Below are positions 29,495 to 30,259 of a stretch of DNA of 64,000 bases, piece by piece. Positions within the stretch are counted from its first letter, which is position 1, and each line of letters opens with the position of its first letter. The stretch comes from an uncultured Candidatus Saccharibacteria bacterium. GTDB taxonomy: Bacteria > Patescibacteriota > Minisyncoccia > Phycocordibacterales > CAYSCM01. The notes beneath the pieces are model-generated. The model was not told the origin of the DNA. It did not search any database and saw only the letters and a list, made by a program, of their open reading frames with translations. The DNA is taken from positions 128,001 through 192,000 of the forward strand of contig CAYSCM010000001.1 of NCBI GenBank assembly GCA_964429815.1. Direction: 5' to 3'. The translations under genes were made by a program, and so were the position numbers.

Positions 29495-30259
29495 TTAGTT
29501 TGGAAATTCTGCGAGTTCGCACAGGCGATCATAGAGATTTTGAATTTTTTTTGGAACACTCGTGGATACAAATGTTCGTTTCCTTTCTGGTTTTATACTT
29601 TCGGTATTAATTTTTCCTCCAATTACGTTCGCCAACTTGTTGAGTCCGTCCGGAGAATAGAGCTGGTCTAAATGCATGAATAGCCATGAATCGCCCTTTT
29701 TAAAATGTTTTTCCAAGATGTGCTCATTAAGGCAAAACCAAGCTTCTAAACTCTTTTCATAGTTAATTTTAAACTCTTTCATAAGTTCAAACTCATCTAC
29801 AAACCTAAGAATACTCCGCGCCGTCTCTGCCGGATGTCTAAACATACAAACGAAGGTGGTTTTAGGAATAAAGGGTTTCCAAGCGCTTAGAGTGTAAGAA
29901 AATCGTGGATCTTTTAGGCAAAAGGGTGTTTTCTGAACCTGCCTTAAGATCTCTTGCTCCTGCGTTTTGGTGGCAATAATGGGTTTATCAAGGGGAATGC
30001 GTGCCAACCAGCGTTGCCATCGCTTAGGAATATGAAAATAGTTAGAATCATGTTCGTGTGGTCGTGCAGGCACTACATTCGACAGAATATCCTCATTAAT
30101 CGATCGAATGCTTATCGACTCAAAGGTTCCATCGGGATTTGAAACTCTCGGCGGAACAAACTCACCCCCAGAATAGTAGTGCGGGTTTCCCCTTATAATT
30201 GCTCCCGCCGCGGCACTTGTGCCACTCCTTCCACACCCAAGCACGATGACATTTCTCAT
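29495..30259 (-). CDS. Sulfotransferase-family-like protein (5'-PSB P-loop)
   Basis: N-terminal VIVLGCGRSGTSAAAGAI resembles the RSGTT PAPS-binding loop of the Sulfotransfer_3/RaxST-like family; convergent with the ligase gene. Confidence 0.6.
   Translation of the reverse strand: MRNVIVLGCGRSGTSAAAGAIIRGNPHYYSGGEFVPPRVSNPDGTFESISIRSINEDILSNVVPARPHEHDSNYFHIPKRWQRWLARIPLDKPIIATKTQEQEILRQVQKTPFCLKDPRFSYTLSAWKPFIPKTTFVCMFRHPAETARSILRFVDEFELMKEFKINYEKSLEAWFCLNEHILEKHFKKGDSWLFMHLDQLYSPDGLNKLANVIGGKINTESIKPERKRTFVSTSVPKKIQNLYDRLCELAEFPN

Follow-up and report, generated by a model that had tools for sequence, protein, structure and literature searches.

Does the putative sulfotransferase (ST) gene at positions 29495..30259 of the 64,000-nucleotide stretch analysed here (the window; part of contig CAYSCM010000001.1, from an uncultured Candidatus Saccharibacteria bacterium) serve the peptide pathway in whose midst it lies, or does its acceptor belong elsewhere? 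A preliminary description of the window had noted the gene in the same island as a small protein packed with tyrosine repeats, and had proposed a logic in the style of RaxST and RaxX – a tyrosine-sulfated product that would also be modified by a YcaO enzyme. The boldest reading, to which we give a probability of roughly one in four, is an undescribed pathway of the candidate phyla radiation (CPR), similar to those of peptides made on the ribosome and then modified post-translationally (RiPPs), in which YcaO and an AMMECR1-fusion protein would act on a small precursor and in which, in a rare sub-lineage, the precursor would also undergo O-sulfation at multiple sites. The target would be a FUS-like low-complexity segment of the (S/G)YY(G)Q(S) type, and the ST would have been captured from glycan metabolism.

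The sulfotransferase, its motifs and its fold

29495..30259, minus strand: ST gene, 254 aa (start codon ATG at 30259, stop codon at 29495-29497), with which the co-directional series of the cluster ends
30215..30238, minus strand: 5'-phosphosulfate-binding loop GCGRSGTS, residues 8-15 of the translation, aligned with GGVPRSGTT of tyrosylprotein sulfotransferase 1 (TPST1)
29903..29914, minus strand: KDPR motif, K116-R119, invariant in the family and aligned to NKDP of TPST1 (family profile against PDB sequences)
29813..29842, minus strand: 3'-phosphate-binding motif FRHPAETARS, F140-S149 of the translation

The preliminary description had taken GCGRSGTS for the loop that binds the 5'-phosphosulfate of 3'-phosphoadenosine 5'-phosphosulfate (PAPS), and in this it was borne out: the translated protein, which begins MRNVIVLGCGRSGTS, carries the loop at residues 8-15, and in an alignment of 50 family members G8, R11, S12, G13, T14 and S15 are invariant. 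It had also named two findings that would speak against a sulfotransferase, namely the absence of a 3'-phosphate-binding motif and membership of a different P-loop family. The motif is present, in the R-x7-S form, with F140, R141, P143 and S149 invariant in the same 50 sequences; when the family profile is compared with PDB sequences, it aligns with VRNPKDTAVS of SULT7A1 and VRDGRASVHS of TPST1. Another P-loop family was considered and rejected on the strength of the two motifs, the profile alignment and the fold prediction.

The invariant columns of the alignment number 25 in all – N41, E47, N55 and E56 among them – and the window ST retains every one, together with nearly all of the near-invariant residues. 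In TPSTs the lysine of the KDP motif is catalytic. E47 and E56 are invariant candidates for the base, and the segment that holds the TPST glutamate fell outside the profile alignment.

Assignment by hidden Markov models, which the preliminary description had proposed as a check, gave a borderline result: Pfam Sulfotransfer_3 (PF13469) matched the protein at E 9.5e-6, but with 26.4 bits it stays 0.6 bit under the curated gathering cut-off of 27.0. Most of the ST homologs carry a precomputed PF13469 assignment; no NCBIfam model matched the window protein. A search of PDB sequences with the single ST sequence found nothing, and the family profile reached mouse SULT7A1 and human TPST1 weakly (E ~0.003), in an alignment that spans the RSGT, KDP and R-x7-S regions. 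An AlphaFold2 model built from the family alignment (pLDDT 94.5, pTM 0.92) predicts a sulfotransferase alpha/beta fold distinct from that of nucleotide kinases. The best PDB matches of this model in Foldseek are headed by the OLS and CurM STs and also include TPST1/2, Stf9 and Stf1. TPSTs are nominally the nearest solved structures, with so slim a margin over the polyketide and heparan-sulfate STs that the acceptor cannot be read from the fold.

The database holds 703 relatives at E<=1e-3, the best foreign ones 59% identical over their full length, and the window protein is a member of a widespread branch, ~255 aa in length, of the Sulfotransferase_3-type fold. From the open reading frame, the two PAPS motifs and the predicted fold we infer the use of PAPS, and we consider it very probable that the gene encodes a functional PAPS-type O-sulfotransferase.

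A YcaO cluster in a low-GC island

The ST is placed within a cluster that has both an enzyme defining a class of RiPPs (YcaO) and a precursor peptide. It is the sixth gene of a closely spaced minus-strand series, which runs through the AMMECR1 fusion, YcaO, the precursor, a 378-aa protein and a FAD-linked oxidase (FADox) and then, after a spacer of 230 nt, reaches the ST.

33440..33751, minus strand: precursor-like peptide, 103 aa, with a hydrophobic N-terminal segment, a TSAD motif and a 50-aa core (33443..33592)
33802..35334, minus strand: YcaO, 510 aa, with a C-terminus ending in PHPFP (Pfam YcaO, E 1.9e-47)
35327..37177, minus strand: AMMECR1 domain (Pfam, E 1.3e-12) followed by a C-terminal region with alpha/alpha-toroid-like matches, 616-629 aa
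32291..33427, minus strand: conserved cluster member, a 378-aa protein whose family is unknown and whose N-terminal segment is hydrophobic
30490..32229, minus strand: FADox, 579 aa (Pfam FAD_binding_4, E 4e-19), a conserved accessory gene
28062..29492, plus strand: PaaK/F390-synthetase-like adenylating enzyme (NCBIfam DVU_1553 family, E 1e-26, and FlxY ligases, E 1e-25, both under cut-off)
28000..37250 (approximate limits), no strand: low-GC island with the complete cluster, ST included (GC ~0.42 against 0.56 in the flanks)
37262..37334, plus strand: tRNA-Arg(GCG), found with ARAGORN, at the edge of the island

Against the SagD-type model TIGR03604 the window YcaO scores 180 bits (cut-off 219), and at its C-terminus P506, H507, F509 and P510 are invariant. 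The C-terminal region of the AMMECR1 fusion has weak matches to SQHop_cyclase_C and TED_complement, both under cut-off; Pfam and NCBIfam scans of the 378-aa protein gave no match. The PaaK-like gene is convergent with the ST, their stop codons lying 2 bp apart, and the ST is flanked by two genes – FADox and the PaaK-like gene – that are both recurrent members of related clusters.

Composition sets the island sharply apart from its surroundings: GC is 0.41-0.46 and, gene by gene, GC at third codon positions (GC3) 0.32-0.40, compared with 0.54-0.60 and 0.62-0.79 in the flanks, and the GC3 of the ST, 0.40, is an island value. Taken overall, GC3 is about 0.36 for the cluster and about 0.65 outside it. 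The protein with tyrosine repeats that had been reported from the same island as the ST is indeed there. It is the precursor-like peptide listed first above, whose core has 8 tyrosines; both genes lie within ~28000..37250, on the same strand, 3.2 kb apart and with two genes between them.

Related clusters and a second locus with the sulfotransferase

The cluster was compared with 147 related YcaO loci, 67 of them from species-representative genomes and 80 from metagenomes (JGI). Named records among them are mostly Patescibacteria/CPR – Parcubacteria, Moranbacteria, Woesebacteria and others – and some of the more distant YcaO loci belong to haloarchaea and other lineages. The AMMECR1 fusion lies upstream of YcaO in ~57 of the 147, homologs of the 378-aa protein follow the precursor gene in ~27, and more than 40 loci share the design of the precursor, in which the N-terminal segment is hydrophobic, an A-x-A-D motif comes next and the core is rich in Gly, Ser, Glu and Cys. 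Closer counterparts of the window cluster are fewer: FADox homologs stand beside YcaO in L007, L016, L047, L073, L074, L075 and L156, PaaK-like homologs accompany YcaO in L007, L047, L073 and L156, and homologs of the window precursor itself were found in L073, L007 and L156.

The last of these loci, L156, carries the ST as well. This locus, a Logan contig of 8.6 kb, was reached only from the ST side, through the ST homolog P0011, and its seven genes are ordered as in the window: AMMECR1 fusion, YcaO, peptide, unknown protein, FADox, ST and a convergent PaaK-like gene. Its first 47 nt match the tRNA-Arg of the window at 98% identity, and this cluster therefore lies beside the same tRNA gene. 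Between the two loci the ST is 52% identical, exactly as conserved as YcaO (52%), as against 35% for FADox, 31% for the unknown protein and 33% for the AMMECR1 fusion. Since the ST has kept its slot at this level of identity while other proteins of the cluster stand at 31-35%, it has been retained through deep divergence. In a neighbour-joining tree the two STs form a sister pair on long branches, next to a CPR clade from outside such clusters; the search for ST homologs found no third ST of the cluster type.

The arrangement PaaK(-) then FADox(+), found in L047, L007 and L073, is the ancestral one; in the two ST-bearing loci the order is FADox(+), ST(+), PaaK(-). Flanking genes that include a Mur ligase and RuvA are common to the window, L073 and L007, which places the cluster at an orthologous chromosomal site in all three. 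Between the window and L073 the flanking proteins are mostly 55-72% identical and the cluster proteins 31-48%, a gap that suggests that the cluster diversified fast or underwent allelic replacement. In L073, an MBL-fold hydrolase and a DUF6817/HD-like protein are encoded between FADox and the conserved flank (16286..17762); they may be alternative accessory genes of this ST-less cluster.

With the ST nested between conserved cluster genes, its layout found again in L156 and STs restricted to loci with Tyr-rich cores, the support for a link to the peptide is real but circumstantial, and we lean slightly towards a functional tie between the ST and the cluster. Such a tie would also hold if the enzyme acted on a building block other than the peptide, that is, on a hydroxy- or aryl-acid activated by the PaaK-like enzyme and modified by FADox, before or after its attachment to the peptide. 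This would suit the position of the ST directly between the FADox and PaaK-like genes in both loci, and STs of the same family adjoin adenylating enzymes elsewhere too (in L153 an A-T-TE gene overlaps the start of the ST gene, and in L161 an A-T protein belongs to the array). However, PaaK-like enzyme and FADox occur together without the ST in L007, L047 and L073, and the matches of ligase and oxidase to NCBIfam models, all far under cut-off, allow no substrate to be inferred for either. We consider a building block of this kind an improbable acceptor.

The precursor and its tyrosines

The core of the window precursor, TPYSQSTYYGQSGYYGQSSYYSESGYGFAEGGGGGGSCEASVQGGGLECC, contains 8 Tyr, 9 Ser, 2 Thr and 3 Cys in its 50 residues, and the tyrosines are set in repeats of the YYGQS type. 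A survey of the cluster family yielded ~54 unique candidate cores, of which four, all from recognisable cluster precursors, are Tyr-rich: those of the window (8 Tyr) and of L156 (4 Tyr; TPYSESSYSGYSQSTYSGGGG...), both from loci with the ST, and those of L073 and L007 (10 Tyr each), both from loci without it. The core of L098, which has 3 Tyr, is likewise from a locus without the ST. Put differently, the ST is present in 2/4 loci with Tyr-rich cores and in 0 of ~40 with recognisable cores of 0-1 Tyr; it is restricted to the Tyr-rich subclade, yet dispensable inside it.

The same core offers aliphatic hydroxyls, and sulfation might fall on its serines and threonines instead of its tyrosines, the sulfate being either final or, as with CurM and OLS, a leaving group for elimination. 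The Ser and Thr residues are interleaved with the core tyrosines, the family background of the enzyme points to aliphatic (sugar) hydroxyls as acceptors, and the sulfation of Thr in a RiPP, a methanobactin, is a precedent (PMC11143521). Against this reading, Pfam and NCBIfam scans of the island proteins found no recognisable thioesterase, lyase or LanC-type domain, and Gly/Ser-rich cores are universal in loci without the ST, so serine alone fails to explain how the ST is distributed. Sulfation at Ser or Thr rather than Tyr has, in our estimate, only a slim chance of being correct.

Evidence against a peptide acceptor

How far, then, does the proposed likeness to RaxST and RaxX hold? In its favour stand the nesting of the ST between cluster genes, the recurrence of this arrangement in L156 and the confinement of the ST to the Tyr-rich subclade. 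A series of observations weighs against it, and in part against any peptide acceptor. The clusters of L073 and L007 have Tyr-rich cores, FADox and a PaaK-like gene, yet no ST, and sulfation is therefore not required for such peptides; indeed, tblastn and the family HMM, at E<=1, found an ST in none of the 147 related loci. The association between tyrosine and the ST is confounded with phylogeny, given that the four Tyr-rich loci make up one subclade, whose members, equidistant at ~48% pairwise identity, the YcaO tree leaves unresolved (bootstraps 0.37-0.54), so that a single gain of the ST is not resolvable. The setting of the tyrosines differs from that of typical TPST or RaxST sites: the core has 4 Glu and 0 Asp, only the last tyrosine (SESGYGFAE) has an acidic residue at <=3 positions, and the other 7/8 sit in S/T/Q/G contexts without an acidic neighbour. 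As to the enzyme, the window ST retains almost all residues conserved in its family, and it shares no specificity switch with the ST of L156, only the conservative changes I6V, S9C and L21I and one at position 30. Its closest CPR homologs (57-58% identity) lie in unrelated contexts with no YcaO nearby. Finally, signature regex searches of the whole window found no APS (adenosine 5'-phosphosulfate) kinase, ATP sulfurylase (Sat), CysD/N/H or CysQ, and the window has neither export nor PAPS genes like those that go with RaxST or SslST.

Outside CPR, the family keeps other company, which belongs to the same side of the argument. All four of the non-CPR members sampled lie in loci rich in glycan genes and glycosyltransferases: P0094 (Halomicronema) among glycosyltransferases, two other STs and an ABC-2 transporter; P0039 (Chloroflexota) among four other STs, glycosyltransferases and an A-T protein; P0057 (Phycisphaerales) with a sugar epimerase on one side and four glycosyltransferases on the other; and P0012, on a planctomycete-like contig, beside Wzz, an A-T-TE protein and a fucose-isomerase-like gene. 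The first three are 39-42% identical to the window ST over the full length and have GT1, GT2 and GT4 neighbours; against P0094 and P0039 the family HMM gives E ~1e-111 to 1e-118. In 2 of the 4 loci the ST gene and a GT2 gene behind it form a conserved pair. Cyanobacterial STs of PF13469, too, are found mostly within exopolysaccharide (EPS) clusters (PMC8205485). Taken together, these glycan contexts, the conserved family residues and the lack of a specificity switch raise the prior for a non-peptide acceptor.

The spacer upstream of the ST adds to this, giving the gene the look of a separate cassette, with a conserved -10-like element of its own, 230 nt of spacing and a divergent partner gene.

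30331..30555, plus strand: small open reading frame, 74 aa, in the spacer between FADox and ST and divergent from the ST (counterpart in L156 at 7286..7486, minus strand)
30262..30272, minus strand: -10-like element GTATAATCGCC, 6-7 nt upstream of the ST ATG (in L156 at ~7527..7537)
30566..30593, plus strand: terminator-like hairpin with a T-run just after the small open reading frame (consensus scan and sequence)

In L156 the small open reading frame has a homolog (40% identity over 58 aa) whose place and orientation are the same, and the other loci have none; the aligned stretch is mostly outside the coding region of FADox. Its product, on a reading of the sequence by eye, is probably a membrane protein with two helices. 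The 11-mer GTATAATCGCC is shared letter for letter by the window and L156, where it takes the extended -10 form TGTATAAT, and the remainder of the spacer is not alignable. It may be the ST's own promoter, and the mRNA may be leaderless or nearly so; a consensus promoter scan did not call the element, for lack of a -35 match. Promoter and terminator hits of the consensus scan in the ST region are not above chance expectation, and the hairpin, as 1 terminator hit against 1.4 expected by chance, is only suggestive. The ST and the small open reading frame likely came in as a pair, with what is probably a promoter of its own, and have remained one; such a pair would fit either an accessory tailoring module or an unrelated passenger.

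The passenger would be an independent cassette of ST and small membrane protein that landed in the island and sulfates a carbohydrate or another non-peptide acceptor (such as a cell-surface glycopolymer or a glycolipid), unrelated to the YcaO product. Several of the observations above speak for it: the glycosyltransferase-rich loci with their ST-GT2 pairs, the cyanobacterial EPS clusters, the consensus residues kept at the 25 invariant columns, the promoter-like element and divergent partner, and the 147 related clusters that lack the ST although two of them are Tyr-rich. What tells against it is local. Neither in the island (28000..37250) nor among the immediately flanking called genes is there a glycosyltransferase or a polysaccharide-export gene; the ST lies between two cluster genes and has their atypical GC3; its placement is kept in L156 despite the divergence of other cluster proteins; and the two cluster STs form a long-branched pair of their own in the tree. 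We regard such a cassette as a serious possibility, if not a likely one. For the precursor peptide as acceptor, with the ST as an accessory tailoring enzyme, our preference is tentative and falls somewhat short of an even chance; O-sulfation of tyrosine specifically we hold to be doubtful.

Where PAPS might come from

L157 3276..4016: APS-kinase fusion gene
L163 2789..3547: APS-kinase fusion gene
L164 7001..7774: APS-kinase fusion gene
L002 10780..10977: APS-kinase fusion gene, truncated

In L157, a CPR ST 57% identical to that of the window is directly followed by a gene for a 246-aa fusion of a cytidylyltransferase-like part with an APS kinase (Pfam 83 bits), and through this neighbour the clade of the window ST appears to be tied to the fusion. 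Such proteins (~250 aa) have 844 relatives, mostly in Parcubacteria-type metagenome-assembled genomes; none was detected in the 64-kb window by tblastn with the L157 gene. Given how widespread the fusions are in CPR, these bacteria would be capable of at least the step from APS to PAPS, and the fusion may represent a minimal PAPS synthase. In L163 and L164 it is found in loci with glycosyltransferases, ABC-2 transporters and STs, a context that again suits the sulfation of glycans, and a TauE-family permease is also among the neighbours of CPR APS-kinase fusions. The ST beside the fusion in L164 was considered as a member of the window-ST family and set aside, as it belongs to a different Sulfotransfer_3 branch.

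Beside the STs of L002-L004 the APS-kinase fusion is shortened to 65 aa. This, along with the lack of PAPS genes in the window, might be taken to mean that the window ST gene is itself an inactive remnant; but its open reading frame is intact, it keeps 25/25 invariant residues and its AlphaFold model is confident, and we think decay very improbable.

In L005 (1397..3011), another CPR contig, the same ST clade is found in a different sulfur-related context: the gene of a 58%-identical ST homolog runs into the start of one for a TauD-family dioxygenase (Pfam 237 bits), behind which comes a methyltransferase gene.

Comparison with known sulfotransferases

With RaxST/RaxX of Xanthomonas oryzae the window shares a gene for a cytoplasmic bacterial PAPS-type ST next to that of a ribosomal precursor peptide. 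RaxX, however, has a single sulfated tyrosine, preceded by Asp, whereas the window core has 8 in YYGQS-type repeats, nearly all without acidic neighbours. The rax loci include a peptidase-containing ABC exporter and PAPS-synthesis genes (raxPQ), of which the window has no counterpart, and the window cluster, unlike theirs, is built around a YcaO. RaxST sulfates tyrosine on the linear RaxX precursor, before the leader is removed (PMC11143521).

A second parallel is provided by SslST and SscST from the clusters of Streptomyces class II lanthipeptides, where an ST likewise has an accessory tailoring role, the RiPP cluster being defined by an enzyme of another class. They were found through co-occurrence, are rare (two clusters) and sulfate tyrosine; SslST requires a thioether ring, modifies one tyrosine and tolerates varied neighbours (PMC11143521). 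The ssl and ssc clusters carry cysCDN, have LanM as their class-defining enzyme and belong to Actinobacteria, whereas the window island has no PAPS gene, is defined by YcaO and belongs to CPR.

TPSTs prefer acidic sites. Those of human and tick (TPST1/2) are 15-16% identical to the window ST (E ~0.003) and are enzymes of the Golgi lumen. The STs of sulfated polysaccharides, as in cyanobacterial loci of the xss/synechan type, are represented in the same ~255-aa family by its members in Halomicronema, Chloroflexota and Phycisphaerales; in contrast to those loci, the window island has no glycosyltransferase, export or polymerisation genes, and the neighbours of its ST are YcaO, a precursor, FADox and an adenylating enzyme. 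The putative methanobactin ST provides the precedent for sulfation of an aliphatic hydroxyl on a RiPP. Methanobactin heterocycles are made by MbnBC, not by YcaO. The CurM and OLS STs, at the head of the Foldseek matches, provide a precedent for sulfate as a leaving group, but there the ST is one domain of a polyketide synthase and adjoins a thioesterase, which the window island lacks. By analogy, the window ST would work most like SslST or RaxST, as an accessory enzyme of a RiPP pathway; in lineage it is not demonstrably of the TPST/RaxST kind and is, by family, closest to glycan STs.

A possible pathway and its significance

On the reading that we favour, one copy of the family would have been recruited into a conserved CPR cluster, together with the small divergent gene for a membrane protein, and would have become a cytoplasmic PAPS-dependent enzyme that performs an optional tailoring step in this sub-lineage. 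It would transfer sulfate from PAPS to hydroxyls in the Tyr/Ser-rich first half of the core (TPYSQSTYYGQSGYYGQSSYYSESGYG), with tyrosine as the most plausible acceptor and Ser or Thr as further candidates, and YcaO would act on the second, Cys-containing half (GSCEAS...LECC). Both reactions would take place in the cytoplasm, before export, and the product would be a polyanion. Among these steps, we infer the use of PAPS, the peptide acceptor, the tyrosine site and the order of events.

To our knowledge, the secondary metabolism of CPR is essentially unexplored. Sulfation is among the rarest of RiPP modifications, known from RaxX, two lanthipeptides, some methanobactins and conopeptides (PMC11143521). 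An ST nested in a YcaO cluster would be a new combination of enzymes. If the bolder reading is true, its product would come first among sulfated YcaO peptides and also among sulfated peptide natural products of ultra-small symbiotic bacteria. Sulfation would make a polyanion of a Tyr-rich tract that is otherwise neutral, in likeness to the Glu-rich cores found in sister clusters, and the ST would exemplify the shift of an enzyme family from glycan to peptide tailoring. If sulfation of glycans is the true role of the ST, the finding is an ordinary one.

Whichever acceptor is correct, the analysis has exposed a large family of CPR clusters, with more than 140 loci, in which an AMMECR1 fusion and YcaO accompany a precursor with a hydrophobic N-terminal segment; this family is a more novel object than the ST itself. 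It extends over 33440..37216 in the window and over loci L006-L152, and comprises the AMMECR1 fusion, a YcaO with a PxPxP-type C-terminus, the precursor and a protein of 370-380 aa; an E1-like/Ocin-ThiF partner and an FMN dehydrogenase are both absent from it. A literature search found, in the library that could be searched, no paper in which YcaO and AMMECR1 appear together, and among papers on YcaO in Patescibacteria/CPR none appears, from title and abstract, to describe this cluster.

Neighbours and edge of the island

A second FAD-linked oxidase (FAD_binding_4 and FAD-oxidase_C) is encoded at 23488..25206 on the plus strand, beside a tRNA-Ser; it lies 3 kb outside the island, has host-like GC and differs in composition from the island FADox. 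Exactly on the boundary between high and low GC, at 27990..28020 on the plus strand, there is a strong hairpin followed by a T-run (GGCACGATTC...GAATCGTGCC TTTTTTT), which marks the edge of the island and probably serves the host gene upstream as its terminator.

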